Position numbers and translations under genes: made by a program. Below the pieces are notes generated by a model that saw only the letters and a program-made list of their open reading frames with translations, ran no database searches and was not told the DNA's origin. This document shows positions 46,478-63,508 of a stretch of DNA of 64,000 nucleotides, piece by piece (the stretch's first letter is position 1; every line of letters begins with the position of its first letter). Source of the stretch: Spirochaetia bacterium (GTDB lineage: Bacteria; Spirochaetota; Spirochaetia; CADAEX01); the NCBI GenBank assembly GCA_963668545.1, contig OY764868.1, positions 3,234,015-3,298,014 of the forward strand, written 5' to 3'.

Positions 46478-47278
46478 TTATAAAGGGCTCTTAATCCTTT
46501 TAGATATCGGATCTGCAAGATTAATATAGATCATTGTAGTTTTAACAGATTTATGTCCAAGCAGCTCTTTTACAGTCTTAATATCAATACCTGATTCAAC
46601 AAGATGAGTTGCAAAGCAGTGCCTCAGGGTATGACATGTGGGGCTTTTCTGTATTTGGCTTTTGTTAAGAGCATTTTCGAATATCTTCTGAACAGTCCTC
46701 ACAGAATATTTTTTTCCGCTGATTGTCCTGAACAGGAATTCAGCCGCACTTCGCCCGCTTATAAGATTCCGGAGGTCCTCTTTATATTTTTCGGACAGCA
46801 GAGAAAACCGGTCCTTATTACCCTTTGAATCTCTTATCTTTACTGAAAGATTATTTAAATTTACATCCCTTATCTTTATCCTGCAAACCTCGCTAACACG
46901 CAGGCCGCTGCCGTAAAGAAGGGAGATCATAAGCTGATGTTTTTTATTGCTTATATTTTTCAGAATTTCAAGGATCTCTTCCCTTGTCAGAATATCAGGA
47001 AGCCTTTTTCTTGACCTTACCCTGTCAAGTTTATAAGGGCACGGCTTATCAAGAACAACAGAATAAAACAGCTTTACGGCAGACCACGCAAGCCGTCTCT
47101 GTTCGGGAGATTTTTCTTCAGTTTCAAGAAAGACCGCAATTCTTTTTTCAGGCACAAAATCTGTCCGCCTAGAGAATTCAATAAAATGCTTTAAATGACC
47201 TGAATAAATCCGTATTGTATTTCGGGAATAATTACGGTTTTTCATCTCTCTGACAAAATCATCAAGATAATTTTTCAT
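46478..47278 (-). CDS. tyrosine site-specific recombinase, putative integron-associated integrase (compact, Xer-like; apparently lacks IntI-specific insertion)
   Basis: Catalytic R127 (GLRVSE), K152/155 (SKGNKDR), H216-x-x-R219 (HTLRHCFATHL), H242 and Y251 (LGHKSVKTTMIY). Divergent from the plus-strand cassette array. Confidence 0.8.
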   Translation of the reverse strand: MKNYLDDFVREMKNRNYSRNTIRIYSGHLKHFIEFSRRTDFVPEKRIAVFLETEEKSPEQRRLAWSAVKLFYSVVLDKPCPYKLDRVRSRKRLPDILTREEILEILKNISNKKHQLMISLLYGSGLRVSEVCRIKIRDVNLNNLSVKIRDSKGNKDRFSLLSEKYKEDLRNLISGRSAAEFLFRTISGKKYSVRTVQKIFENALNKSQIQKSPTCHTLRHCFATHLVESGIDIKTVKELLGHKSVKTTMIYINLADPISKRIKSPL

Positions 47279-47604
47279 AAATCACGTCCTCCTTTATGTA
47301 TTAACAGGAGAAATGCAATTCTGCTTGAATTATCAGCAAACAAACCGTAAAATTATCATGCAATACAGATAAATGTAGTTCATCTGAAATAACTCGGGGC
47401 TAAGAAAATTTAATATAACTGGCTCCAGCGGTAGATCAGCAAAGAAGCGGTGTAGCTTATGGGATATTGTCATGGCACATGATTAACGACAAGAACCGCC
47501 CCGAGTTACATCAGATAACAAGAAATATATGCGGCATTTCATTTGGGCTTCGCCACAATGGCTTCGTCCCTCAGCCATCGTCATATATTTCTAAAACGTT
47601 ATGT
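47279..47604 (+). other. attI-like region with degenerate attC-like structure ending in GTTAT core (47598-47602)
   Basis: 11-bp inverted repeat TAACTCGGGGC (47388-47398) / GCCCCGAGTTA (47497-47507), then cagATAAC-AAGAAATATATG...CATATATTTCT-aaaacGTTAT homologous to downstream attC sites. Confidence 0.5.
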
Positions 47605-47682: not shown

Positions 47683-49404
47683 GTGTCGAAGAAACTAACA
47701 ATTGAGGAAATGCAAAATATTGCTAAAAGTCGTGGTGGCAAATGCATCTCAAAGAAATATATAAATAAAAATAGTAAATTGGAATGGGAATGCTCTGAAG
47801 GCCATAGATGGTTAGCAACTCCAGATTCAATTAAAAATACTGGTCGATGGTGCCCTATATGCGGAGGTTCTGCACCATTAACGTTAAAAGAAATACAATT
47901 AATTGCTAAAGAAAGAGGTGGGAAATGTCTTTCCGAAGAGTATATCAATGTCAAAACAACAATGAGATGGGAATGTTCAGAAGGTCACCACTGGGAGAAC
48001 ACTGCCGGAAAAATTAGACAAGGTCAATGGTGCCCTTATTGTGCCGGAAAGGCAAAATTGGATATTCAGGACTTGAAAAGATTAGCAGAAGAAAAAGGCG
48101 GTAAATGTCTTTCTGAAAAATATAAGAACAATAGTTCAAAATTGTTATGGCAATGTTCAGAAGGGCATGAATGGAAATCCAGTGCAAATAATATTAAAAA
48201 TGGTGCGTGGTGTCCCTTTTGTGCTAATCGTGCAAGAATTACAATTGAGTCTCTATCAGATATTGCCAATAAAAGAGGTGGAGAACTTTTATCAACAGAT
48301 ATCGGAAATAACAAAACAAAATTGCAGTGGCGGTGCAAATACGGTCACACATGGAAAGCCACACCAAATGCCATTAGTAGAGGTACATGGTGCCCAAAGT
48401 GCTCAGAGGGTTTAGGAGAAAGAGTTTGTAGGTATTTCTTTGAAACACTTTTTGCAAAGAAGTTTAATAAAGCTCATCCTGATTGGTTGGTTTCAGAAAG
48501 AGGAGCGTTGCTTGAATTGGATGGATACAATGAAAGATTAAAAATTGCGTTTGAACACCAAGGCGTCCAGCATTACAAATTTTTAAAAGTTTTCCATTCA
48601 TCTAATGAGGACTTTATTGATCAGCAGAACAGGGATGAGCTTAAAAAAGAAGTTTGTAAAAAAAGAGGCATACACTTAATTGAGGTTCCAGAGATTCCAG
48701 CATTATTACCGTTGGATAAAGTCAAAGACTTTATTATTGAAAAATTGCAGGATTTACAGATTCCATTCAAATATGAAAAAGCAATATCAATTGATTTGAA
48801 TATAGCATATTCATCAAGTAAAACCGAAGAATTCTATATTCGTCTCCAGAAAGCTGTTGAAGAAAAAGGAGGAATATTAATTTCCAACCGATATCTCGGA
48901 ACTTCGACTAAACTTAAGTTCAAATGTAAAGAAGGGCATATCTGGAAGACATCTCCTAATATGATTTTTAATGGACAATGGTGTCCAGAATGTGCTGGAA
49001 ATATTAAATATACCTTAGAACAAGTTCAGGATTTTGCAAAAGAGCGAGGAGGGAAATGTCTATCGACAGAATACAATAGAGCAAATGAAAAGCTTAAATG
49101 GAAATGTAATTTTGGACATACTTGGGAAGCATCACTAAGTAATGTTATAACTGCAAATCATTGGTGTCCTGTATGTCGCAAGATTGAAGAAGAGACAAGA
49201 TTTTATAATGAAGCGGTTGATTTAGCAAAGAAAAATCAAGGAACTTGCATTTCAAGAAAATATATAAATGCAAAAACAAAGCTCAAGTGGCGTTGTTCCA
49301 GTGGACATGAATGGGAAGCGCTACTCGGTAATATTCGACAAGGAACATGGTGTCCTTATTGTGCCAAGAAGCGGAGAAATAGTAATACAGATAATTTATC
49401 GTAA
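47683..49404 (+). CDS. cassette 1: protein with seven ~45-aa treble-clef zinc-ribbon repeats (DUF4379-like, W-C-x-GH-W...W-CP-x-C) flanking a central DUF559/PD-(D/E)xK-like nuclease-fold domain
   Basis: Repeats KCxSxxY...KLxWxCxxGHxWxxxxxxIxxGxWCPxC occur 4 times N-terminally and 3 times C-terminally. The central LELDGYNERLKIAFEHQGVQHY resembles the restriction-endonuclease-like DUF559 core. Confidence 0.6.
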   Translation: MSKKLTIEEMQNIAKSRGGKCISKKYINKNSKLEWECSEGHRWLATPDSIKNTGRWCPICGGSAPLTLKEIQLIAKERGGKCLSEEYINVKTTMRWECSEGHHWENTAGKIRQGQWCPYCAGKAKLDIQDLKRLAEEKGGKCLSEKYKNNSSKLLWQCSEGHEWKSSANNIKNGAWCPFCANRARITIESLSDIANKRGGELLSTDIGNNKTKLQWRCKYGHTWKATPNAISRGTWCPKCSEGLGERVCRYFFETLFAKKFNKAHPDWLVSERGALLELDGYNERLKIAFEHQGVQHYKFLKVFHSSNEDFIDQQNRDELKKEVCKKRGIHLIEVPEIPALLPLDKVKDFIIEKLQDLQIPFKYEKAISIDLNIAYSSSKTEEFYIRLQKAVEEKGGILISNRYLGTSTKLKFKCKEGHIWKTSPNMIFNGQWCPECAGNIKYTLEQVQDFAKERGGKCLSTEYNRANEKLKWKCNFGHTWEASLSNVITANHWCPVCRKIEEETRFYNEAVDLAKKNQGTCISRKYINAKTKLKWRCSSGHEWEALLGNIRQGTWCPYCAKKRRNSNTDNLS

Positions 49405-49471: not shown

Positions 49472-49616
49472 ACATAACAGCGAATATGCGGTTACGCTTC
49501 GCTTCACCCAAATTGCTTCTTTGATAAAAGCTGAAAAAAGTATGTTATACTTTTCCCAGCTTTTATCAAGCCCACAAGGGGCCGAAGCAACTTCGCATAT
49601 TCGCGAGACGTTATCG
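49472..49616 (+). repeat. attC site of cassette 1
   Basis: ATAAC-agcgaatatgcg ... cgcatattcgcgag-acGTTATCG inverted arms; GTT at 49610-49612. Confidence 0.6.
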
Positions 49617-50044
49617 TAAATGGCTCTGACATACAACTTCATTCATTATTTACTAAAATCTGTCTCAGCCTTTTTTCAGGGTTTTATATCTCTTTCACAG
49701 GTTTCAACTGCACTGGTTCATTCTTGTTTTTAGAACTTCTTGCTTTGCTTTATCATGACTCTTATTGGTTTAAGTTTTTATATTTTTGCAGTTTCACTTT
49801 TCTTCAGTTCTGATATTGATAAGCACTAAGGGCTGAGTCAGATTTTGTCCTGACCTACACTCTTTCGTTTCCTTCACGCCACATCCGAAAACAGCGTATA
49901 TCCGGCTCCGGCTTGTGGGATGTATTTTCAGGGTAAAACGTCCTTCGCCAAAAATGCCAGGACTTTTTGTGTTGCAGAGTAAATGCAGCAGGTGTATCAT
50001 TAATCAAAATAAAGCGGCTGGCATCTTCGGATATACGCGTGCCG
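49611..50044 (+). repeat. ORF-less repeated cassette, copy a (434 nt, includes its own ~165-nt attC 49885-50050)
   Basis: Runs from the TT after the previous GTT core to its own GTT core. Divergent copy (about 90% identical to copies b-f). Confidence 0.6.
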
Positions 50045-50478
50045 TTTTCGGAAATGGCTCTGACATACAACTTCATTCATTATTCACGAAAATCTGTCTC
50101 AGCCTTTTTTCATGGTTTTGTGTCTCTTTCACAGGTTTCAACTGCATTTTTTCAGTTCTGCTTTTACAACTTCTTGCTTTGATTTTTCATGACTCTTATT
50201 GGTTTAAGTTTCTATATTTTGCAGTTTTCACACTTTTTAAGTTTTGTTATCTATAAGCACAAAGGGCTGAGTCAGATTTTGTCCTGACCTACACTCGTTC
50301 GTTTCCTTCACGCCACATCCGAAAACAGCGTATATCCGGCTCCGGCTTGCGGGGTGTATTTCCAGGGTAAAGCGTCCTTCGCCAAAAATGCCAGGACTTT
50401 TTGTGTTGCAGAGTAAATGCAGCAGGTGTATCATTATTCAAAATAGAGCGGCTGGCATCTTCGGATATACGCGTGCCG
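50045..50478 (+). repeat. ORF-less repeated cassette, copy b
   Basis: Same unit; attC arms gaAAAC-agcgtatatccg ... cggatatacgcgtgcc-GTTTTcg. Confidence 0.6.
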
Positions 50479-50913
50479 TTTTCGGAAATGGCGCTGACAT
50501 ACAACTTCATTCATTATTCACGAAAATCTGTCTCAGCCTTTTTTCCTTGGTTTTGTGTCTCTTTCATCGGTTTCAACTGCACTTTTTCAGTTCTGCTTTA
50601 AGAACTTAATTCTTTGATTTTTCATGACTCTTATTGGTATAAGTTTTTATATTTTTGCAGTTTCACTTCTCTTCAGTTCCGATATTGATAAGCACAAAGG
50701 GCTGAGTCAGATTTTGTCCTGACCTACTCTCTTTCGTTTTCTTCACGCCACTTCCGAAAACAGCGTATATCCGGCTCCGGCTTGCGGGGTGTATTTCCAA
50801 GGTAAAGCGTCCTTCGCCAAAAATGCCAGGACTTTTTGTGTTGCAGAGTAAATGCAGCAGGTGTATCATTAATCAAAATAAAGCGGCTGACATCTTCGGA
50901 TATACGCGTGCCG
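50479..50913 (+). repeat. ORF-less repeated cassette, copy c (identical to copy f)
   Basis: The 435-nt unit is identical base-for-base to 59612-60046. Identity starts and stops at the GTT cores. Confidence 0.65.
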
Positions 50914-50937
50914 TTATTCGTAATTTTCAGGCAAGAT

Positions 50938-50967
50938 ATTGCCCGGACCTCCCGGACGACACGGGCA
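50938..50967 (+). promoter_or_regulatory. conserved GC-rich hairpin module at 5' end of cassette (variant GCCCGGacctcccggacgacaCGGGC)
   Basis: About 25 nt downstream of the GTT core. Related modules at 53804, 56800, 58078, 60077 and 63524. Confidence 0.45.
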
Positions 50968-51004
50968 AAAGATTTAAAAAATATTTATTTTGCAGGAGAA
51001 AAAA

Positions 51005-51787
51005 ATGTTTTATGAGGAAATAAATAAAAGAACATGGAATGCAGCTAAACAATATTTAATAAATTTGTGTAAAGAAAGTTCGCATTGGATTTTTAGAGGT
51101 CAGTCAAATCCGGATTGGGAAGTAACTTCAACAATAGAAAGAGAATTAAGATATAGTGACCAAGAAAATTCTTCGATAGAAAATAAATTAATATCCGAAT
51201 TCAAAAGGGCTGCTCCCAATTATTTAAATCAAAACCAGATTCCTGCAAAACTGGTTGAATGGATGGCCTTAATGCAACATTACGGAGCTCCAACTCGTTT
51301 AGTTGATTTTACTAAATCTCCATATATTGCAACATTCTTTGCTTTTGAAAATATCTTTGAAAATTACAAATATGTTACAGTATGGGCAGTAGAAAGCTAC
51401 AAATTGAAGCAATTAGCTAATGAAGTGTATATAGATGATGATGTTCCCCAATTAATGAAAAATAATAAATATTTGGTATATCCTATTGAACCTTTTATAA
51501 TGAATGAAAGATTCGAAAAACAACAAGGGACATTTTTAATTACAGGAAACATTAATCAATCACTAGCTACAAATTTTATCGAAATGGGCTTATTAGAAGA
51601 TATGGGAATTATTAAAAAAATTAATATTCCAAAAATAGAAAAAAATAGTGTTATTCAAGACTTAAATTTAATGAATATCAATCCTGTAACTCTTTTTCCT
51701 GGTTTAGATGGATATTCGCGATACATAAAAAAAATGACAGATGCAATTTATAAAAAAGATTTTACTTATTTTAAAAGAGGAAATTAA
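51005..51787 (+). CDS. cassette: FRG-domain protein
   Basis: HWIFRGQSNPDWEV motif (FRG). ATG at 51005 with a GGAG RBS (the ORF track's TTG at 50990 is inside the conserved hairpin module). Confidence 0.65.
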   Translation: MFYEEINKRTWNAAKQYLINLCKESSHWIFRGQSNPDWEVTSTIERELRYSDQENSSIENKLISEFKRAAPNYLNQNQIPAKLVEWMALMQHYGAPTRLVDFTKSPYIATFFAFENIFENYKYVTVWAVESYKLKQLANEVYIDDDVPQLMKNNKYLVYPIEPFIMNERFEKQQGTFLITGNINQSLATNFIEMGLLEDMGIIKKINIPKIEKNSVIQDLNLMNINPVTLFPGLDGYSRYIKKMTDAIYKKDFTYFKRGN

Positions 51788-51859
51788 AATATTGCGACAA
51801 GTTATAAACAATTCAGAACTGGCTCCGCCGGACGGTCTGAAGAAGAGCCTGAAAACTAC

Positions 51860-52028
51860 GCATAACAGAGAATACCCGGTTCAGGCATAAGTAGTAAAAG
51901 TATGGGGCTTAACTGCCGTTCACCCAAAATGTCGGGACTTTTGTTGTTGCGTGTGAAATCTGGTGGGTATATGATTAATGAAATATCTGGAGCATCCGAC
52001 ATCTTCGGGTATTCTCAGAACGTTATAA
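51860..52028 (+). repeat. attC site (long family 1) of FRG cassette
   Basis: cATAAC-agagaatacccg ... cgggtattctcag-aacGTTATAAG. Preceded by an imperfect CAGAAC...GGTCTG hairpin at 51817-51839. Confidence 0.6.
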
Positions 52029-52125
52029 GAAATTGCGCTAATTAAATCTAATATAGATATTATATTTACAATAATTACATATAAATATATTTGATATATA
52101 ATGGTTTAATAATAAAGGATGATAT

Positions 52126-52680
52126 ATGAAAAAAATTATAATAAGTTTGATATTTATAACAGTAGCTTTTTGTGCTTTTCCTCAAGAAGCGAATATGAGA
52201 TTTCAATCTCAAATAGCTAGATTATTTGCACTCTATATTCCAAGTGCCGATTACAGTGTTGATTGGAACGCTAATAATACTGGAGAAGTTCTCAATATAA
52301 AATTTCCTGAAGTGAAATCATCAACTTATAATAGAAATATAATACCTAATTTAACAATTCAAATTGAAAAGAAATACAAATCCTTTGATACAAAGAGTGA
52401 ATTGATAAGTTTGTTGAATGACATGGAAAAAAGTCATTTCAAAGCAATATCAACAGGTCAAAAAGTCGATGGAGTCAATTTACAATACTCTATTGAAACT
52501 TTTGTAGCCTGTCAAAGCTATAAAGATCTTAAGATAAACAATATGAACCATACAATTCTTATCATGCTTGGACAATATGAAGACATGGCTGCCAGAGTAA
52601 TATTTGATGCTACTGATGATATATTTGAAAACACTCTTGAAACTGCAAAAACCATAATAAATAGTATTATTCTTGATTAA
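52126..52680 (+). CDS. cassette: secreted hypothetical protein (signal peptide)
   Basis: MKKIIISLIFITVAFCAF signal peptide. AT-rich cassette with its own AT-rich 5' region. Confidence 0.55.
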   Translation: MKKIIISLIFITVAFCAFPQEANMRFQSQIARLFALYIPSADYSVDWNANNTGEVLNIKFPEVKSSTYNRNIIPNLTIQIEKKYKSFDTKSELISLLNDMEKSHFKAISTGQKVDGVNLQYSIETFVACQSYKDLKINNMNHTILIMLGQYEDMAARVIFDATDDIFENTLETAKTIINSIILD

Positions 52681-52745
52681 AGAATATATCAAAGTAAAAC
52701 TATGAGAAGTTTAAATAATGTTGTTAGTGAAGGTAGGCGCAACTA

Positions 52746-52910
52746 CTTATAACAAGAAATATATGATAAAAACTGAATTAGAATAAATATAAGCAAACAG
52801 TTTTTATCAAAATTGCCAGAATATTTTCTGTTTCAGGATAATTTCAGAAGGTGTATGATTATTTCATATGAAGCACTCTGGCAACTTCATATATTTCTGA
52901 AACGTTTTCG
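52746..52910 (+). repeat. attC site (family 2)
   Basis: cTTATAAC-aagaaatatatg ... tgccag...ctggca ... catatatttct-gaaacGTTTTCG. Confidence 0.6.
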
Positions 52911-53339
52911 GAAATGGCTCTGACTCACAACTTCATTCATTATTCACAAAAATCTGTCTCAGCCTTTTTTCCATGGTTTTGTGTCTCATTTCTCGGTTTC
53001 AACTGCACTTTTTCAGTTCTGCTTTTACAACTTCTTGCTTAGATTTTTCATGACTCTTATTGGTATAAGTTTTTATATTTTTGCAGTTTCACTTCTCACC
53101 AGTTTTGATATTGATAAGCACTAAGGGCTGAGTCAGATTTTGTCCTGACTTACACTCTTTCGTTTTCTTCACGCCACATCCGAAAACAGCGTATATCCGG
53201 CTCCGGCTTGTGGGATGTATTTTCAGGGTAAAACGTCCTTCGCCAAAAATGCCAGGACTTTTTGTGTTGCAGAGTAAATGCAGCAGGTGTATCATTAATC
53301 AAAATAAAGCGGCTGGCATCTTCGGATATACGCGTGCCG
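52905..53339 (+). repeat. ORF-less repeated cassette, copy d
   Basis: Same 434/435-nt unit as copies a-c. Confidence 0.6.
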
Positions 53340-53773
53340 TTTTCGGAAATGGCTCTGACATACAACTTCATTCATTATTCACGAAAATCTGTCTCAGCCT
53401 TTTTTCAAGGTTTTGTGTCTAATCCTTGGGTTTCAACTGCACTGGTTCAGTTCTGCTCTTATAACATTTTGCTTTGATTTTTCATGACGCTTATGGATAT
53501 AAGTTTTTATATTTTTGCAGTTTCACTTTTCTTCAGTTCTGATATCGATAAGCACAAAGGGCTGAGTCAGATTTTGTCCTGACCTACACTCTTTCGTTTC
53601 CTTCACGCCACATCCGAAAACAGCGTATATCCGGCTCCGGCTTGTGGGATGTATTTTCAGGGTAAAACGTCCTTCGCCAAAAATGCCAGGACTTTTTGTG
53701 TTGCAGAGTAAATACAGCAGGTGTATCATTAATCAAAATAAAGCGGCTGGCATCTTCGGATATACGCGTGCCG
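53340..53773 (+). repeat. ORF-less repeated cassette, copy e
   Basis: Same unit. Confidence 0.6.
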
Positions 53774-54072
53774 TTATAAGCAATGTTTCCGCTAAGAGGA
53801 GAACGCCCATACCTCCGCCGACGGGCGAAGATTTAAAATTTATGATAAATTCAAAATAAAATGAAAGTATCTATGTATTGAATGATACGAAAGAATATGT
53901 TTATCAGAAAGAACTAAAATGAAATCATAGATGGTAAAACTTGACTTTTTCGTGATTAATAGTGATAGTTTTGTGATATTTCTGATTTTATAATATTAAT
54001 CTATTGAACCAATAATATTGAATATATTCCTTGACAGAGATTTTTACTGTATCTATCATTATCTTAACAACT

Positions 54073-55020
54073 ATGGAATATAGAGACTATTATAAAATCC
54101 TTGGCCTATCCAAGGATGCAACAAAAGATGATATAAAAAAGGCATACCGCAAACTTGCGCGTAAGTATCATCCAGATATAAACCTCCATGATAAAAAAGC
54201 TACTACTATGTTTGCAGATATCAATGAAGCAAACGAAGTGTTAAGCAGCGACGAAAAACGCAGGAAATATGATGCTCTGGGTTCAGACTGGCAGCAGTAT
54301 CAAAGTACCGGCTCCCAGAGGGCCTCACAACCACAGGGATTCGATTGGACACAATACGGTAAAGGAGCAGGCACTCAATCGTATACAGTTACAGAGGACG
54401 ACTTGAACAATATGTTTGGAGAAGGCGGTTTTTCGGATTTTTTCCAAAGCTTTTTTTCGTCCAGCCAGGAAAGACCGGGCAGTTCGGCTAAAAATTACGC
54501 AAGAAAAGGGCAGGATTATCAGGCTGAATTATATCTCGAAATTGAAGAAGCCTATAAAAAAACTGTTAAGACACTCTCTATAAACAGACAAAATATCAAG
54601 ATCACCCTTGAACCTGGCGTCAGGGATAGCCAGGTCATTAGACTGAAGGGTAAGGGCGGCCTAGGAATTAATGGCGGAGCTAATGGTGATTTATTTATTA
54701 CCCTGAAAATAAAACCCCATCCTATCTATAAAAGGGAGGGAGATGATCTGATTATGGAACTTGGTGTGAGTGTTTACAAAGCCATGCTTGGCGGCGAACA
54801 AATTATTAAATTATTATCAGATTCAATAAAAGTGAAAATAGCTCCCGAGACCCAAAGAGGGACAACACTACGCATCAAAGGAAAAGGATTTCCTTTGTAC
54901 AGGATAAAAGATGAATTTGGAGATTTATATATAAAGCTGGTTCTGGATGTACCCAAAAAGCTGACTGTAAAAGAGAAGGAATTAATAATGGAACTGGCCA
55001 AAATTAGGGGAGAAATATAA
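54073..55020 (+). CDS. cbpA: cassette: curved-DNA-binding DnaJ-like co-chaperone CbpA (J domain + DnaJ C-terminal domains, no Zn finger)
   Basis: MEYRDYYKILGL...HPD J-domain at the N-terminus, Gly/Phe-rich linker and two DnaJ_C beta domains. ATG at 54073 (the ORF track's TTG at 54031 would add 14 aa). Confidence 0.8.
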   Translation: MEYRDYYKILGLSKDATKDDIKKAYRKLARKYHPDINLHDKKATTMFADINEANEVLSSDEKRRKYDALGSDWQQYQSTGSQRASQPQGFDWTQYGKGAGTQSYTVTEDDLNNMFGEGGFSDFFQSFFSSSQERPGSSAKNYARKGQDYQAELYLEIEEAYKKTVKTLSINRQNIKITLEPGVRDSQVIRLKGKGGLGINGGANGDLFITLKIKPHPIYKREGDDLIMELGVSVYKAMLGGEQIIKLLSDSIKVKIAPETQRGTTLRIKGKGFPLYRIKDEFGDLYIKLVLDVPKKLTVKEKELIMELAKIRGEI

Positions 55021-55022
55021 AC

Positions 55023-55379
55023 ATGACAAGTCAAATATATATCCCTATCCAGGACGTTTCCGATTTTTGTCACATTAATATTACTATACTAAGAGATTTT
55101 GCCGAATACGAACTCATCAATATTCAAGAGTATAAAAATACCGAATGTGTGAAGGCTGATGATCTTGAACATATCAAGCGGATTATAGATTTATACAAGA
55201 GTCTTGGAGTGAATAAGGAAGGCATAGAGGTAATCCTGAAAATGCGCGACCAAATCCTGGAATTACAGGACGAAATTACTATACTTAAACATAAACTCGA
55301 GCACCGTAGAAACGACGTCAAATTTCGCTTTATAGAATTACCCAAGCAAAAGGGTTTATTGATTGATTATGATGAATAA
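55023..55379 (+). CDS. cbpM: cassette: chaperone modulatory protein CbpM (MerR-like)
   Basis: 118 aa, begins 3 nt after the cbpA stop. MerR-like fold; this is the canonical cbpA-cbpM pairing. Confidence 0.65.
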   Translation: MTSQIYIPIQDVSDFCHINITILRDFAEYELINIQEYKNTECVKADDLEHIKRIIDLYKSLGVNKEGIEVILKMRDQILELQDEITILKHKLEHRRNDVKFRFIELPKQKGLLIDYDE

Positions 55380-55692
55380 TCATTTTCAATAAGGATTATA
55401 AATTTATCACAACAATAACTGCCTTATTTAAAAACTAAGTGATATTGGAGTTTGTCAAAGAATTAATGTTTCTTAGGGAACAAATTGGTATTTAAAGTTT
55501 CAGATTTTTAGATTACAACCATTGCTCAAACCACAACTATGCTTTCCTGTTTTTAGTTTTCTCAGAAGCTCCAGATTAATCGTGGTATAGATCGAGGTAT
55601 AGTCAAAAACATCATAAGAAATAATCAAGTCTGATGATGTAATATAAAACAATGAGCAAATTTGTATAACATACAGTATGGAAGAGAAGGGA

Positions 55693-55833
55693 CCAGACCT
55701 TGACTCCTCCGAGCGGTCTGGTCGAAGAGGCGGAAACACTGCTTATAACAGCGGCTATATGCTTCGCCCTTTCGGGCTCGGCCTACGGCACATTTGGCTG
55801 CGCCAAACGTCATATAACCGCAAAACGTTAGCC
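55693..55833 (+). repeat. CCAGACC hairpin + short attC (family 3) ending GTTAGCC
   Basis: CCAGACCttgactcctccgagcGGTCTGG, then cTTATAAC-agcggctatatg ... catataaccgc-aaaacGTTAGCC (canonical GTTRRRY). Confidence 0.6.
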
Positions 55834-55913
55834 ATAATGCTCGGCTTGCCTTTTTGACTCGCCATCCATAGCTCGATTTGTAAGTAATATTAAAAGTAGG
55901 GAGATATAGTTCA

Positions 55914-56558
55914 ATGAACCTTTATAAGCACAAAAAAATCTTTTTATCAATTTTTCTATCTGCAATATTTTGTTTTAATTCATTATCGTTAGTAGCTGAT
56001 GATTATTCACCTGAAATCCAAAAATATATGGATGATTTGTTAAAGTGGAGAAAGGAGGTTGCATTACCACCACTACCGAAATTAATAACTTTACCATCAG
56101 GAATTACTATTCCAGAATTCACATTGAAGACAGAGAAATACCCTGAAGTTTTTTGGGATGGAAATATGATGATTGGCGCAACTCCTTTTATTGTGCGAGT
56201 TTTAACTGAAAATGAGACAGAAATACTCATAAAAATTGCTTCAGATGCACTTACACAACACTATAACTCAAGATCAAAGAAATCCGATATGGGTTTTGAA
56301 AAAGCACATATAAATGATTTCTATGCTTTATCAATAGCTGAAGTATATAGACATTCTGGGTTATTCGGACCAACCATTGATGGAAGCACAACATTTGTAT
56401 TAATTATGAAAAAAGATGTAAATCCATCAAACCTTTTTCCAAATGAAAAGCTATATAAAAACTACATACCTTGGGCGCCTAGCGGCATACATTTCTTAGT
56501 AATTGAGCGATTTTCTGATGGTTCTTTTAAAGTCAATAACGAAGGAGCCGCCGGATAA
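55914..56558 (+). CDS. cassette: secreted hypothetical protein
   Basis: Signal peptide MNLYKHKKIFLSIFLSAIFCFNSLSLVA. Confidence 0.55.
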   Translation: MNLYKHKKIFLSIFLSAIFCFNSLSLVADDYSPEIQKYMDDLLKWRKEVALPPLPKLITLPSGITIPEFTLKTEKYPEVFWDGNMMIGATPFIVRVLTENETEILIKIASDALTQHYNSRSKKSDMGFEKAHINDFYALSIAEVYRHSGLFGPTIDGSTTFVLIMKKDVNPSNLFPNEKLYKNYIPWAPSGIHFLVIERFSDGSFKVNNEGAAG

Positions 56559-56611
56559 AAAAGTACATCCATATACTTTGTATATTTAGATAGAGGATAG
56601 CCGAGCACAAC

Positions 56612-56775
56612 GGCTAACAAGAAATATATTATTCAGGCTGGAGAAGTAAAAAAGAAAGTATACAGCCTTCATCCAAATTGCCAGAATGTTTTCTGTTGCA
56701 GAGTAATTTCAGCAGGTGTATGATTATTTCATATGAAGAAGTCTGGCAACTTCATATATTTCTGAAACGTTATCA
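56612..56775 (+). repeat. attC site (family 2)
   Basis: gCTAAC-aagaaatatatt ... catatatttct-gaaacGTTATCAG. Confidence 0.6.
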
Positions 56776-56799
56776 GAAATGTTCCCGCAAGAGGAAGAT

Positions 56800-56824
56800 C
56801 GCCCGGACCTCCGGCCGACGGGCG
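56800..56824 (+). promoter_or_regulatory. conserved GC hairpin module CGCCCGGacctccggccgaCGGGCG at cassette 5' end
   Basis: Identical or near-identical copies at 58078, 60077 and 63524; variants at 50938 and 53804. Confidence 0.45.
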
Positions 56825-56861
56825 AAGATAATTCAACAATAATGAAAAAGGAGATAATAAT

Positions 56862-57821
56862 TTGAAAAATGTATATTTAATAATACTATTATTGACAGTT
56901 AATACATTAGTTTCAGCAAATGACACATGGATTTATAACGCATATAGTGGTTCCCCAATAAAAATTAATGAGGATCATAATAAAATTGAATTAATCAATG
57001 AAACAATCACAGTTAAATTAGAAAAAGACTACTACTATATTGATGTTTTATTCAACTTTTACAATCATGGAAATGATGTAAATACAGTTATAGGTTTTCC
57101 TAAATTTTATTGGACCGGATTTCCATATGAAAAAGCAGATACTGAATTTATAGATTTTGAAACATTTGTTAATGGTAAAAAAGTTGATTCTAAAATTCAA
57201 AAAATACTAAAATATGATAAACTATCTGAATTTTTAACAAAAGAGGTATACATTCCTTCTAAGTCAAAAACAACAACTGAAATAAGATATAAGAGTAAAT
57301 ATGCAACCTATGGAGGAATGGGTCATAAATCTGTACCATATTTATATGGTACAGGTAAAACTTGGGCGAAAGAATCTTGGGATATAGATGTAAAAATAAT
57401 AAATAATAGCAACAAATGGATTAAGCGATTCCAATGTGATCAAAAAATCTATAAATTTTCAAATAAAAACAATGTTATTGATTTAATCTTTAAAGATGTG
57501 AATCCAAACGAATTTACAGAGTATTTTGAAATTGTATTAAAGAATAATTTTGATGAAATGTTTGATTTTTACTGGGATATTTATGGGGAAAAAAATATTA
57601 AACAAGATGAACTAACTTATTTAAATGATAATCAATTAAGACTTTATAGAAATGCATTCTTTGCAAAAGATGGTTATATTTTCAAATCAAAAGATTTGCA
57701 AAATTATTTTAAAAAATTTGATTGGTATAAAGAAAACAATGACTTTAATCCAGATGTTTTTTCAAATATAGAAAAAAATAATATTAAATTAATTTCAATA
57801 GAAGAAAAAAAACGTAAATAG
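56862..57821 (+). CDS. cassette: secreted YARHG-domain protein
   Basis: Signal peptide; C-terminal LRLYRNAFFAKDGYIFKSKDLQNYFKKFDWY matches the YARHG-domain pattern. Confidence 0.6.
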   Translation: MKNVYLIILLLTVNTLVSANDTWIYNAYSGSPIKINEDHNKIELINETITVKLEKDYYYIDVLFNFYNHGNDVNTVIGFPKFYWTGFPYEKADTEFIDFETFVNGKKVDSKIQKILKYDKLSEFLTKEVYIPSKSKTTTEIRYKSKYATYGGMGHKSVPYLYGTGKTWAKESWDIDVKIINNSNKWIKRFQCDQKIYKFSNKNNVIDLIFKDVNPNEFTEYFEIVLKNNFDEMFDFYWDIYGEKNIKQDELTYLNDNQLRLYRNAFFAKDGYIFKSKDLQNYFKKFDWYKENNDFNPDVFSNIEKNNIKLISIEEKKRK

Positions 57822-57837
57822 AATCTTTAAAAGAAAT

Positions 57838-58054
57838 CCAGACCTGGCTCCGCCGTACGGTCTGGAGAAGAGCGGGAACACATCTGATAACAGAGAATAC
57901 CACGGTTCAGGCATAAGTTGTAGAAGCTTTGGAATAAATGCCTTTCACCCAAAATGTCGGGTCTTTTTATTGTTGCGTGTGAAATCGGCCAGATATATGA
58001 TTTATTAAATATCTGGAGTACCCGACATCTTCGGGTATTCTCAGAACGTTATCG
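57838..58054 (+). repeat. CCAGACC hairpin + long attC (family 1)
   Basis: CCAGACCtggctccgccgtacGGTCTGG ... tGATAAC-agagaatacc ... cgggtattctcag-aacGTTATCG. Confidence 0.6.
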
Positions 58055-58165
58055 TAAATGCCCCCCAAGAGAAGATCGCCCGGACCTCCGGCCGACGGGC
58101 GATAAGATTATAATGATTATGAATTGAATTAGACTACAAAAAAGTAAAGAGGAGGATCTACAGAT

Positions 58166-59341
58166 ATGTCAGAGCAGTTCTCAAGAAGAAAAAAGGAAGA
58201 AAACCCCGTTATAGCGATTTGCTATGATTTTGATAAAACCCTTTCTCCTGACGATATGCAAGCTCAAGGATTTATACAGTCAGTTGGATATGATATAAAA
58301 ACTTTTTGGGAGAGATCAAATAAGCTTGCTACTGATAATGAAATGGATCAAAATCTAGCATATATGTATACAATGCTTCAAACATCAGTAGGGATGCAGT
58401 TAGTAACAAAAAAAGTGTTAAGGGAATATGGTGAAAAAGTTACTCTTTTCCCTGGAGTAGAAGATTGGTTCTCAAGAATAAGAGATTATGGCATTAAACG
58501 CGATGTTATAATTGAACATTATATAATTTCATCTGGTTTAAAAGAAATGATTGAAGGAACATCAGTTGCAAAAGAATTTGAAAAAATATATGCAAGTTCT
58601 TTTTATTTTGATGAATATGATATTGCAAAGTGGCCAGCTCAAGCAATAAATTATACAAATAAGACTCAGTTTTTATTCAGAATAGAAAAAGGTGTTTTGG
58701 ATATTAATGACCAAAGTGTAAATGATAGCTTTTCATCAGATAAAATTAGAGTGCCATTCAGAAATATAATTTATATTGGTGATAGTGACACTGATATCCC
58801 GTGTATGAAATTAGTTAATTCTTATGGGGGGCATTCAATAGGCGTATATAATGTTGAAACAAAGGATAAAACTAAAGTTTATAAAATGATGAGGGAAAAT
58901 AGAATTAAATATTTCTCTCCAGCTGATTATTCTGAAGATTCAGAATTGGACAAATTAATAAAAGCAATAATTGTAAGAACTGTTTCCAATGAGCAACTTG
59001 AAGTTTTTCATTCAAAAAATATTTTAGAACAAATTGATAATGACAAATCATATGATAAAAAGACTCAAGAACAAAATAAAGAAAGATTGAATGGTATTTT
59101 AGCACTTGAAAGCAGTCTTAGTTTTACGAATACTCATACCGTTATTGATAAGATTAAACATATTCAAGATTGGACAGATAAAGAAATAGAAATGTTATTA
59201 GAAATAGGAAATAAAAATAGTCAAGTATGGTATATATTAGGTGATTTAGACGTAAAGAATTTTTATAAAAGACTTATAGAATCACCAAATTGTAATAAAG
59301 AGACGGATAATGCAAAAGAAATTATAGAACAGATAGATTAA
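58166..59341 (+). CDS. cassette: HAD-like hydrolase with C-terminal extension
   Basis: CYDFDKTLSP (DxDxT motif I) and IYIGDSDTD (motif IV); 391 aa. Confidence 0.55.
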   Translation: MSEQFSRRKKEENPVIAICYDFDKTLSPDDMQAQGFIQSVGYDIKTFWERSNKLATDNEMDQNLAYMYTMLQTSVGMQLVTKKVLREYGEKVTLFPGVEDWFSRIRDYGIKRDVIIEHYIISSGLKEMIEGTSVAKEFEKIYASSFYFDEYDIAKWPAQAINYTNKTQFLFRIEKGVLDINDQSVNDSFSSDKIRVPFRNIIYIGDSDTDIPCMKLVNSYGGHSIGVYNVETKDKTKVYKMMRENRIKYFSPADYSEDSELDKLIKAIIVRTVSNEQLEVFHSKNILEQIDNDKSYDKKTQEQNKERLNGILALESSLSFTNTHTVIDKIKHIQDWTDKEIEMLLEIGNKNSQVWYILGDLDVKNFYKRLIESPNCNKETDNAKEIIEQID

Positions 59342-59399
59342 ACTAAGATTATCTAAAAATAATGTTATCTTGAAATATAATCGAGAGATAGATAAAAAG

Positions 59400-59617
59400 C
59401 CAGACCTTGACTCCGTCGTACGGCTTGGACAAGAGAGGGGGGCACATCCGATAACAGAGAATACCCGGTTCAGGCATAAGCAGTAAAAGTTTGGGGCTTA
59501 ACTGCCTTTCACCCAAAATGTCGGGCCTTTTTATGTTACAGGTGGAAACTGGTGGTTGTATGATTATTTTAATACGTGGAAGATCCGACATCTTCGGGTA
59601 TTCTCAGAACGTTTTCG
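59400..59617 (+). repeat. hairpin + long attC (family 1) ending GTTTTCG
   Basis: CCAGACCttgactccgtcgtacGGCTTGG ... cGATAAC-agagaatacccg ... cgggtattctcag-aacGTTTTCGG. Confidence 0.6.
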
Positions 59618-60046
59618 GAAATGGCGCTGACATACAACTTCATTCATTATTCACGAAAATCTGTCTCAGCCTTTTTTCCTTGGTTTTGTGTCTCTTTCAT
59701 CGGTTTCAACTGCACTTTTTCAGTTCTGCTTTAAGAACTTAATTCTTTGATTTTTCATGACTCTTATTGGTATAAGTTTTTATATTTTTGCAGTTTCACT
59801 TCTCTTCAGTTCCGATATTGATAAGCACAAAGGGCTGAGTCAGATTTTGTCCTGACCTACTCTCTTTCGTTTTCTTCACGCCACTTCCGAAAACAGCGTA
59901 TATCCGGCTCCGGCTTGCGGGGTGTATTTCCAAGGTAAAGCGTCCTTCGCCAAAAATGCCAGGACTTTTTGTGTTGCAGAGTAAATGCAGCAGGTGTATC
60001 ATTAATCAAAATAAAGCGGCTGACATCTTCGGATATACGCGTGCCG
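59612..60046 (+). repeat. ORF-less repeated cassette, copy f (identical to copy c)
   Basis: 435/435 identity to 50479-50913; the flanks differ on both sides. Confidence 0.65.
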
Positions 60047-60143
60047 TTATCAGCAATGTTCCCGCAAGAGAAAGATCGCCCGGACCTCCGGCCGACGGGC
60101 GAGGATTGTGAAAATAATTAGTTAAATTTCAAGGAAATTATTT

Positions 60144-62171: not shown

Positions 62172-63508
62172 TCCAACCAGGACATGGGTAACGATTTAAC
62201 TTCAGGACATAGGTAACACTTTTACAGGAATCTTTCCGAAACCTTTAATAAAAAAGGGAGGAAAGAAATGCCCTGGAAGGAGACTTATGTTATGGATCAA
62301 AGAAAAGAATTCGTACTGGAAGCAATGGATCCTCTCTGCAATTTTACTAAGCTTTGTAGTAAATACGGCATTTCAACTAAGACAGGATATAAGTGGAAAA
62401 GCCGTTTTATACAAGAAGGTTTTGCAGGCCTTTTTGATCAGTCGAAAAGACCTGATAATTCACCAACTCAAATAGATGAAGAGACGATACTTGAGATAAT
62501 AAAATTAAAAATAAAGAAAAAACACTGGGGGCCAAAGAAAATAAGAGAGATTTACAGGCAAAAACATCCTGATGAAATAATACCATGTCTTACCAGTGTC
62601 GAAAGAATATTAAGAAAAGCAGGTCTTATTAAAAAACGAAAGCGGAATCGGACAGGCAGTGGAATTAGACTTCAAACAAATGCTGTAGCTGAAAAGCCTA
62701 ATGATGTATGGACAGTAGATTTTAAAGGTTGGTGGTATACCCAAGATAAAGAAAAAGTGAATCCGTTAACTGTAAGAGATGATTTTTCAAAATACATTTT
62801 ATGCATAAAAGCTCTTGATAAAGGGGATACAGCTTCTGTAAAGGCTGAATTTGAGGTTCTTTTTAAAAGATTTGGACTTCCTAAAGTCATTCGATCAGAT
62901 AATGGACCTCCCTTTGCATCAAGAATGAGTCTTCTAGGCTTAACAAAGCTTTCAGTCTGGTGGATGGCTTTAGGTATTCAATTAGATAGAATTGAACCAG
63001 GTAAACCTCAGCAAAATGGAAGCCATGAACGAATGCACCTTGATATGAAAAATGAACTTGAAAGCTGTATCGAAGGAAATATTCTGCTGCACCAGAAAGA
63101 GTTTGACAGGTGGCGTAAAGAGTTCAATAACGAGAGGCCTCATGAAGCTTTAGGAATGAAAACTCCTGCTATGGTTTATACTGCATCAGAAAATAAATAT
63201 GACGGAATCATTGAGGACTTGGAATATCCCGGAACATTCAGGACACGGTTGGTAAATAACAGGGGTTATATAAGCATTAAAAGACGAATGTTCTTTATTG
63301 GTAATCCTTTCATGGGTTATTATGTAGGTATAAGACCGCAAAAGGACTGACAGCAGAATGTCTGGTTCGGTGATTATTTTTTAGGATCTTTGGATATGGA
63401 TACAGGATTATTACAGCCTGAGTCTATTGTGAAATTTAATAAGGGCAATTTAAGAAAACCGTTACCCATGTCTTGAAGGGGGACTGTTACCTATGTCCTG
63501 AAGTTGGA
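62172..63508 (+). mobile_element. IS481-family-like insertion sequence inserted about 20 nt downstream of an attC core, inside the conserved 5' module of the next cassette
   Basis: Ends TGTCCAACCAGGACATGGGTAAC (left) and GTTACCTATGTCCTGAAGTTGGAC (right, reverse-complementary). Each end carries two tandem copies of a ~17-nt CAGGACATRGGTAAC motif. Confidence 0.65.
62268..63350 (+). CDS. IS481-family transposase (HTH + rve DDE integrase core)
   Basis: N-terminal HTH; DVWTVDFKGW ... D ... E rve catalytic core; 360 aa single ORF. Confidence 0.75.
   Translation: MPWKETYVMDQRKEFVLEAMDPLCNFTKLCSKYGISTKTGYKWKSRFIQEGFAGLFDQSKRPDNSPTQIDEETILEIIKLKIKKKHWGPKKIREIYRQKHPDEIIPCLTSVERILRKAGLIKKRKRNRTGSGIRLQTNAVAEKPNDVWTVDFKGWWYTQDKEKVNPLTVRDDFSKYILCIKALDKGDTASVKAEFEVLFKRFGLPKVIRSDNGPPFASRMSLLGLTKLSVWWMALGIQLDRIEPGKPQQNGSHERMHLDMKNELESCIEGNILLHQKEFDRWRKEFNNERPHEALGMKTPAMVYTASENKYDGIIEDLEYPGTFRTRLVNNRGYISIKRRMFFIGNPFMGYYVGIRPQKD

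Follow-up and report, generated by a model that had tools for sequence, protein, structure and literature searches.

Gene-less cassettes are a considerable fraction of integron arrays, and what they do is understood only in part. A 64,000-nucleotide (nt) stretch of DNA from an uncultured Spirochaetia bacterium (CADAEX01; assembly GCA_963668545.1, contig OY764868.1, positions 3,234,015-3,298,014 of the forward strand), which we call the window, raises the question of what a unit of about 434 nt, lacking any evident open reading frame (ORF) and present in six copies within 10.4 kb, might be. A preliminary description of this DNA had taken the copies for integron cassettes, with a cargo more likely to encode an RNA or to be a structural or regulatory element. 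We find that every 434-nt unit constitutes a single complete cassette, without coding content, in a chromosomal integron-like array, and that the units belong to an independently mobile family of non-coding cassettes in which the conserved part is a long inverted repeat continuing the cassette's own recombination site, attC. As to what maintains such a family, we give an even chance to the view that it is a cargo-less hairpin cassette driven by recombination itself.

To delimit the units we combined a repeat search, alignment and a script, and then used the six copies to build a profile for searches with nhmmer. This profile matched all six with E-values of 1e-157 to 1e-161 and found no further full copy in the 64-kb window, in agreement with the positions previously given:

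49611-50044, plus strand: copy a, 434 nt, whose first 7 nt are TTATCGT and not TTTTCGG
50045-50478, plus strand: copy b, 434 nt, in tandem with a and c
50479-50913, plus strand: copy c, 435 nt, 100% identical to f
52905-53339, plus strand: copy d, 435 nt, with an attC 100% identical to that of a and a cargo that is 11% different
53340-53773, plus strand: copy e, 434 nt, in tandem with d
59612-60046, plus strand: copy f, 435 nt, 100% identical to c and about 9 kb further along the array

The positions of the cores divide each unit into about 276 nt of cargo and an attC of about 165 nt, with the inverse core CGAAAAC at unit columns 277-283 and the core G/TTTTCG at the junction (the slash marking the point of crossover), much as the preliminary description had divided it. 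Copies c and f are identical over 435 of 435 nt, and outside the unit they still agree for just 2 nt on the left (CG) and 4 nt on the right (TTAT), all of them conserved core positions, before giving way to unrelated flanks. The alignment hence confirms an identical pair bounded by the G/TT crossover. The accompanying proposal of a recent duplication or re-insertion stands as regards the crossover point, but gene conversion between paralogous copies could also have produced the identity because homology ends at the same points. The pairwise identity of the other copies is 91.7-93.8%. In addition, the attC sites of copies a (49886-50050) and d (53181-53345) are 100% identical while their cargos are only 88.7% identical, and the sites fall into two haplotypes with four linked differences (T/C, A/G, T/C, A/G); this indicates that parts of the units have been reassorted or gene-converted.

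For comparison we fetched 13 loci containing related recombinases (L001-L004 and L006-L014; about 220 kb in all), of which L001-L004 and L006-L009 include array DNA beside the recombinase gene and L010-L012 almost none. The attC sites and cassette borders were mapped with an iterated attC profile hidden Markov model (HMM), which recovered 12 full-length long attC sites in the window and one partial match at 49474-49516. Outside the repeated unit the cassettes carry a sense-strand ORF of 121-402 amino acids (aa), save for two further gene-less families. Taken together, the attC map and the surrounding ORF cassettes show that the earlier interpretation of the repeats as cassettes was correct. 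The attC sites of the six copies are as follows:

49886-50050, plus strand: attC of copy a, 165 nt, from inverse core CGAAAAC to core G/TTTTCG (sequence, attC HMM match)
50320-50484, plus strand: attC of copy b (sequence, attC HMM)
50755-50919, plus strand: attC of copy c, in which the R box and L box (GTATATCCG/CGGATATAC) pair (sequence, attC HMM, folding)
53181-53345, plus strand: attC of copy d (sequence, attC HMM)
53615-53779, plus strand: attC of copy e (sequence, attC HMM)
59888-60052, plus strand: attC of copy f (attC HMM)

The inverse core RYYYAAC and the core GTTRRRY are present in 6/6 copies, the G/TT crossover is apparent both from the c/f boundary and from the point at which related loci diverge at attI, and a hairpin attC with paired R and L boxes emerges from covariation on 21 junctions. 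The element has every cassette property that was tested. The first 26 nt of each cassette were compared with the last 26 nt up to its own inverse core, with the start of the cassette that follows in the array as control. A cassette's own ends were found to pair through the R box, a short bubble and then a 9-bp outer box of cassette-specific sequence, for example TTTTCGGCC/GGCCGAAAA and TTCGTCCCT/AGGGACGAA (window 56770-56790 against about 57860-57885). This outer box, seen in all cassettes of these arrays, has on average 6.7 of 9 Watson-Crick pairs between a cassette's own ends as against 3.6 of 9 with the neighbour's start (Wilcoxon p = 1e-4, n = 23). When 21 circle junctions were rebuilt and aligned, their common fold consisted of four helices, namely the outer box, R box, L box and inner stem, with compensatory changes among these 21 cassettes in 24 of 37 pairs, including 8 of the 9 pairs of the outer box. 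The covariation score of 0.578 compares with 0.19 in shuffled alignments (0/500 of which attain it), and slid controls do not exceed 0.16. The pairing and covariation of the outer box imply that the first and last ~20 nt of what had been called cargo belong to the recombination site, and the much weaker pairing with the neighbour's start implies that only an excised circle has the full helix. A start of TTAxxxxxAAT(G) is common to nearly all cassettes of the arrays; the ATG that follows the core lies within this conserved, paired flank of the site and is therefore not a start codon.

Three further sequence features surround the attC sites. Of 35 distinct sites from the window and L001-L008, 30 have a sense-oriented promoter-like motif, TTGCNN-N17-TAT(G/C)AT, in the region of the terminal loop (e.g. 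at 49972-50000), always with a 17-nt spacing, and four of the other five have near-matches; the motif could represent a per-cassette promoter or merely conserved attC sequence. Many otherwise unrelated ORF cassettes have in common a 5' leader of about 60 nt (AATGTTCCCGCAAGAGAAGATCGCCCGGACCTCCGGCCGACGGGCGAAGAT) with a GC-rich hairpin before the ribosome-binding site (window 50914-50985, 53774-53833, 56770-56829, 58049-58100 and 60047-60106; also in cassettes of L001 and L002). Finally, a purine-rich motif, AGAGAAGA, flanks attC on both sides.

If the unit is a cassette, does it carry a gene? The claim that no ORF of the cargo survives comparison between copies is strengthened by the three full and one truncated further copies recovered from related genomes (L001, L006, L007 and, truncated, L008), in none of which is a gene called. 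Indels of 1 nt occur at three places among the copies and are not multiples of three: the stretch between GCC and GGTTTT measures 8, 9 or 10 nt, in L001 one base is added at alignment column 176, and in L001 and L006 one is missing at column 255. The synonymous fraction of the substitutions is 0.06-0.32 over the six frames in both ungapped blocks, which confirms the earlier remark that they are not synonymous-biased, and stops occur in every frame. The longest ORF of the unit, of 65-68 aa (68 aa being 204 bp), is on the minus strand and mostly inside attC; its differences between copies are all non-synonymous, and the 68-aa version has no homologue among 5.8 billion clustered proteins. A 42-codon frame said to begin right after the core does exist in copy d (52914-53042), but the corresponding ATGGCG frame of c and f has 37 codons, such ATG frames not being alike in all copies because the sequence that follows the T6 run is 8, 9 or 10 nt long. 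Three candidates were rejected as coding: this ATG frame, on account of indels and lost starts in other copies; a plus-strand ORF (MTLIG...), the frame of which is broken by the +1 insertion in L001; and a 12-aa minus-strand ORF that is absent in L007. With no frame surviving between copies, the designation ORF-less holds. Gene-less cassettes are known from Vibrio superintegrons (Blanco et al. 2024, PMC11014356) and Treponema integrons (Tansirichaiya et al. 2019, PMC6557892), and the unit conforms to their definition of having no annotated gene and no ORF above 210 bp (PMC11014356). The conserved translatable ORF by which a small-protein or type I toxin cassette would be recognized was not found in the copies.

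These comparisons also bear on whether the cargo might be a decayed protein-coding cassette, i.e. what is left of a small gene, perhaps one on the minus strand as toxin-antitoxin cassettes have. In copies a, b and e a plus-strand frame stays open over about 79 codons, interrupted by one stop in b and e and two in a; the plus strand has 43.5% T and 20% A, mirroring the antisense strand of the array's A-rich genes; and substitutions in columns 71-175 show a weak three-base periodicity (24:16:10). Set against this are the stops in all frames of all copies, a synonymous fraction no higher than chance, frame-breaking indels that differ between copies, and the want of a homologue for any translation. 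Moreover, a pseudogene would not keep 81-96% identity where neutral sites are saturated, and the long inverted repeat described below is not expected of one. We therefore regard a decayed gene as very improbable.

The two ends of the cargo, which are its conserved parts, are mutually complementary. A conserved 5' block (columns 41-104) is complementary to a conserved 3' block (columns 180-246), and at the core of this arrangement is a 19/20 inverted repeat, AAAATCTGTCTCAGCCTTT/AAAGGGCTGAGTCAGATTTT (columns 46-65 and 220-239), with arms 154 nt apart and shorter, weaker helices on both sides. In the six copies the core of the inverted repeat, which has no strand of its own, occupies the following positions:

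49655-49846: copy a, arms AAAATCTGTCTCAGCC (49655-49670) and GGCTGAGTCAGATTTT (49831-49846)
50089-50280: copy b, arms 50089-50104 and 50265-50280
50523-50715: copy c, arms 50523-50538 and 50700-50715
52949-53141: copy d, arms 52949-52964 and 53126-53141
53384-53575: copy e, arms 53384-53399 and 53560-53575
59656-59848: copy f, arms 59656-59671 and 59833-59848

The GTCAG-N8-CTGAC hairpin noted earlier is indeed present once in each of the six copies and, at 0 mismatches, nowhere else in the 64 kb, but in copy b it lies at 50271-50288 and not at 50264-50285, and it is only one piece of the 3' arm of the much longer inverted repeat. The cargo is predicted to fold from end to end (z-scores of -5.5 as plus-strand RNA, -7.4 as minus-strand RNA and -5.65 as DNA), and the inner cargo of copy c, stripped of the generic 22-nt ends, still reaches z = -4.35 as single-stranded DNA. 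In a circularly permuted unit, an arrangement that occurs naturally where copy b meets copy c, the stems of cargo and attC merge into one rod comprising about 360 of 434 nt (z = -4.3 and -4.6). The cargo repeat hence continues the attC stem, such that the excised strand, or a unit in tandem context, can fold as a single rod; the leftover ~75 nt form the far loop, which is the most variable part and has 50% T on the plus strand. Variation is found in 16 of 86 paired as against 38 of 84 unpaired columns of the arms (odds ratio 0.28, p = 2.6e-4), a test that is partly circular since the structure was predicted from the same sequences. We also considered whether the cargo might be a second, inverted attC, and rejected this as the attC HMM had no match to it on either strand.

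A stable fold might equally be that of an RNA, and the cargo could on this account be a small-RNA gene producing a structured trans-acting or antisense RNA, like sRNA-Xcc1 of Xanthomonas. The very stable fold predicted for either RNA strand, the conserved sequence blocks and six one-sided changes that preserve G-U or A-U pairs on the plus strand would be consistent with such a product, and PMC6557892 provides a precedent for a cassette-borne small RNA. However, no Rfam match was obtained at the gathering threshold in the whole window or at an E-value of up to 5 inside the cargo proper, the four weak matches at the latter threshold (E 0.31-2.5) all lying over the preceding attC (49517-49677). 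The covariation check that had been proposed across the copies and their homologues in related genomes gave compensatory changes in 0 of 67 cargo-stem pairs and a score equal to that of shuffled alignments; by itself this neither supports nor contradicts the cargo stem. In 8 of 8 full-length copies both strands fold about equally well, and no G-U asymmetry indicative of a strand-specific RNA was found, as would be expected of a DNA palindrome rather than of such an RNA. Scans detected no terminator-like site in or after the cargo and no convincing conserved promoter, and the length of the cargo varies in homopolymer runs. Of the two options initially offered for the cargo, the structural one is thus retained, whereas the RNA one fares poorly on account of the covariation, Rfam and strand-symmetry results; a small-RNA gene appears to us improbable.

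Another alternative, for which the literature gives the strongest prior among the rivals, is that of a promoter cassette: a sense promoter in the cargo (ATGACT-18-TATATT, with a start near column 183) would drive the next cassette, and the copies would re-energize transcription along a long array. Sense activity has been reported for most of 29 gene-less Vibrio cassettes (PMC11014356), and two ORF-less Treponema cassettes were active too (PMC6557892). In the element a scan flags ATGACT-18-TATATT in five copies (9/12 consensus match), a TATATT or AATATT hexamer stands at the same place in 9 of 9 aligned copies with a T-rich region upstream of it, and an ORF cassette follows wherever a block of copies ends (after c, e and f). 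Yet this candidate is situated in the most variable part of the element, its -35 hexamer or spacing is lost in L001, L007 and L008, and the scan count barely exceeds that of shuffled sequences (38 vs 27.9 +/- 4.8), in silico calls being in any case no predictor of activity (PMC11014356). Further, every attC of the array already has the better-conserved TTGCNN-17-TAT(G/C)AT motif, so that a separate promoter cassette seems unnecessary, and the conserved inverted repeat is left unexplained. On balance we think it unlikely, though well worth keeping in view, that a promoter is the function of the cargo.

Beyond the window, the nhmmer profile recovered copies of the element in four of the related loci:

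L001, 6490-6059: full copy
L006, 9899-9467: full copy
L007, 9519-9086: full copy
L008, 720-375, minus strand: truncated and more divergent copy

The cargo of the window copies is 89-96% identical to that of L006, 84-92% to that of L001 and 81-88% to that of L007, while the third codon positions of the recombinase are only 52%, 72% and 47% identical, respectively. A cargo so much more conserved than third-codon sites implies that the element is much younger than its host lineages, or much more constrained than neutral sequence, or both. The copies within the window are as divergent from one another as from those of other genomes, and copies c and f have their nearest relative in L006 (96%), where the element takes first place at attI, the normal entry point of cassettes. 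All four of these copies have different flanking cassettes, which is what independent mobility would leave behind. The L008 copy is without its 5' arm and is joined, at its internal GGTTTCAAC, to the left half of a different attC (CAGATAACAGCGAATATGCGG), which suggests recombination at a secondary GTT site. The element was not found in the more distant recombinase relatives L009-L014, including Spirochaeta isovalerica; exact and degenerate patterns of the conserved cargo blocks had no true match in the genome_contigs, metagenome_contigs and viral_contigs collections, and a blastn search of plasmids and phages with the whole unit had none either. A lone pattern match in a Thermodesulfobacteriota single amplified genome (L005) was dismissed as chance, since it has no similarity by nhmmer. 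By these comparisons the element circulates among the lineages concerned as a cassette.

The same survey speaks to whether the repeats might instead be a miniature inverted-repeat transposable element (MITE) or another transposon-derived repeat within the array, or else an assembly artefact that duplicated a repeat. The internal 19/20 inverted repeat and the occurrence of IS481-family transposases inside these arrays are compatible with a transposon origin. Nevertheless, the repeated unit ends at the integron cores and not at the inverted repeat, the unit lacks terminal inverted repeats, and neither target-site duplications nor direct repeats at the ends of the inverted repeat are to be seen; no copy lies outside cassettes in the window or the 13 related loci. 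Thus, the marks of a MITE that the preliminary description had named as a refutation are lacking. An artefact is unlikely as the unit recurs in independent assemblies, and we consider the transposon and artefact explanation hardly credible. The IS481-family transposase genes themselves are found inside or at the end of arrays (window 62268-63350; L007 4358-5566 and 6252-7460; L009 5808-7016).

The array in which the element resides is headed by the following features:

46478-47278, minus strand: tyrosine recombinase of the array, 266 aa (domain, family and structure matches)
47325-47380, plus strand: Pc-like promoter and attI-like crossover (promoter scan, alignment of related loci)

The candidate Pc-like promoter, TTGAAT-17-TAAAAT at 47325-47353, is conserved and faces the array; the attI-like crossover, ATGTAG/TT with its G at 47378, lies about 100 nt from the divergently oriented recombinase gene. 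Eight sequences (the window, L001-L004 and L006-L008) can be aligned for about 100 nt past the recombinase start codon until TGTAG/TT and diverge from the TT on, which amounts to attI-like behavior with a G/TT crossover. The locus accordingly has, beside a divergent recombinase gene, both the attI and, as judged by sequence, the cassette promoter of a canonical integron. On the chromosomal side, L001-L004 and L006-L008 share genes for Lnt, a phosphoribosyltransferase and a cupin, followed by the recombinase, with a radical SAM gene in addition in L001-L004 and L006; the shorter L009 and L012 agree over the parts that they cover. Past the recombinase the arrays differ completely between loci. 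Homologues of the recombinase (P0001-P0120) make up a large family of 265-266 aa in Spirochaetota, at a conserved chromosomal site beside variable arrays. A search for tRNA and tmRNA genes found none.

The recombinase contains the Phage_integrase (PF00589) and SAM-like domains. Its top family model is TIGR02249 (integron integrase), matched in two separate stretches with 205 bits, which is under the cut-off of 265, and archaeal XerA gives nearly the same score (200 bits); its top solved relative is the Vibrio cholerae integrase VchIntIA (PDB 2A3V; 132 bits). The alignment breaks opposite VchIntIA residues 182-245, where the recombinase has only 21 residues, about 43 fewer; we take these residues of VchIntIA to be the region of the IntI-specific insertion, which was reportedly described by Messier and Roy in 2001. 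The insertion is thought to be needed for attC recognition. IntegronFinder defines the integrase by PF00589 together with the IntI-specific region near patch III (intI_Cterm profile; PMC4889954). As that region is not seen in the alignment of the recombinase to VchIntIA, the protein would not count as IntI under this definition. A recombinase without the IntI-specific domain nevertheless appears to run a bona fide cassette array, which would widen the definition on which integron-finding software depends, and the platform is a natural system in which to ask how folded attC sites are recognized. Given that the recombinase lacks the IntI-specific region and that the attC sites are about 165 nt long with an extra helix, the element is not simply that of a canonical integron. 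Tentatively, and with the greater probability against it, the whole could represent a distinct, undescribed Spirochaetota branch of integron-like systems, defined by the 266-aa recombinase and the ~165-nt attC with its outer box, with the element as its minimal parasite, a cassette consisting solely of a lengthened recombination hairpin. If true, the element would be the first recognizable family of "non-autonomous selfish cassettes".

Two side observations concern the remaining content of these arrays. The window cassettes at 47683-49404 and 50990-51787 encode the defense-type domains CapR/DUF4379 and FRG, and ThsB-TIR, GmrSD, HamA, OLD/AAA and restriction-modification genes occur in the related loci L001-L007; by its domain content the array looks like a defense island assembled by cassette capture. 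There are also other cassettes without genes. The first cassette of the window (47379-47598), likewise the first in L004, is a gene-less cassette of 220 nt with an attC of a different type (about 85 nt), the ends of which pair over about 24 bp. A second gene-less family of 372-379 nt (family X), which starts with TTATCGTAAATGACAGGCC and has its own inverted repeats (CTTCATGGC/GCCATGAAG), is found on the minus strand in L003 (9903-9521) and L007 (9903-9521, 9085-8714 and 8713-8335), the three copies in L007 and the 434-nt element there jointly occupying a 1.7-kb stretch that has no gene. That all gene-less cassettes are long rods is only partly true: the inner z-score is -2.4 for family X and -0.08 for the 220-nt cassette, whose stem accordingly stops at ~24 bp.

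How might a cassette with neither protein nor evident RNA product persist and multiply? We infer that the selected feature of the 434-nt element is the DNA-level hairpin and not a product, and that the element would be maintained and multiplied as a good substrate of the array's recombinase. One strand would be excised, replicative resolution would leave the donor copy in place, and the excised cassette would then be re-inserted. Single-strand excision with replicative resolution and retention of the donor copy is the established model of integron recombination. The element would thereby be the integron counterpart of a MITE, and effects on its neighbors, through spacing, the attC promoter-like motif or RNA structure in the array transcript, might arise as side effects that are not required for its persistence.

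Several observations count against this account. On its own the attC of copy c folds no better than shuffled sequence (z = -1.55 for the bottom and -0.71 for the top strand), and the 0 of 67 compensatory cargo-stem pairs, with a covariation score equal to that of shuffles, stand alongside the partial circularity of the test on arm columns. The near-invariant arms could reflect recent common ancestry or horizontal transfer instead of selection for pairing, and conserved arm sequence, as opposed to complementarity alone, is also what one would expect of a protein-binding site or an RNA. Gene conversion could be the source of the identical pair c/f. Most copies have a -10-like TATATT, preceded in 6 of 9 by ATGACT at a distance of 18 nt, and most of the gene-less Vibrio cassettes tested have sense promoter activity (PMC11014356). 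Finally, to call the element selfish is our inference from its sequence. Should structure-driven persistence nonetheless prove true, integron arrays would contain parasites of their own, and the number of copies, their tandem blocks and the length of an array would not have to mirror adaptive content; the 434-nt family provides a clean, conserved, multi-copy test case for cargo-less persistence.

Comparison with known systems places the element as follows. Like the gene-less cassettes of Vibrio and Treponema, the latter from Spirochaetota as here, it is short, has its own attC and no ORF above ~70 aa, and stands among the ORF cassettes of a sedentary chromosomal array. Unlike them, it occurs as six copies in 10.4 kb of a family common to several genomes and has as its conserved feature a long inverted repeat continuing the attC stem, with a poorly conserved candidate promoter and no sequence similarity to the searched collections. 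As cited in PMC6557892, sRNA-Xcc1 is a trans-acting small RNA from an ORF-less integron cassette of Xanthomonas campestris. The element resembles it as a non-coding cassette with a predicted stable secondary structure, but has no Rfam match, covariation, strand asymmetry or pair of promoter and terminator. The recombinase is IntI-like in that VchIntIA and the integron integrases are its top structural and family matches, and in that its gene points away from the array, attI and a Pc-like promoter lying between the two; it differs in its size (266 vs ~320 aa), in the 21 residues at the IntI-specific region and in scoring below the family cut-off. With canonical attC sites (the 59-base elements, Vibrio cholerae repeats) the sites studied here share the inverse core RYYYAAC and core G/TTRRRY, the G/TT crossover, R and L boxes that pair and covary, a lineage-specific conserved sequence and a cassette start complementary to its own inverse core. 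The usual length of attC is roughly 57-141 nt. In contrast, the present sites are of ~165 nt, with an unpaired insertion of ~49 nt in the left arm; complementarity runs ~13 nt past the core into the cassette as the 9-bp outer box, with the cassette's own start only, and in the 434-nt element pairing continues for ~100 nt more. Like MITEs and the repetitive extragenic palindromes (REP) and bacterial interspersed mosaic elements (BIME), the element is short, non-coding, multi-copy, hairpin-forming and dependent on an enzyme encoded elsewhere, and by this analogy it behaves functionally like a non-autonomous parasite. Unlike these, it has no inverted repeats at the unit ends and no target duplication, is confined to the cassette array, and is moved by site-specific recombination at attC cores rather than by a transposase. 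The 434-nt element is, in sum, a new family of the already known class of gene-less cassettes, in an atypical platform.

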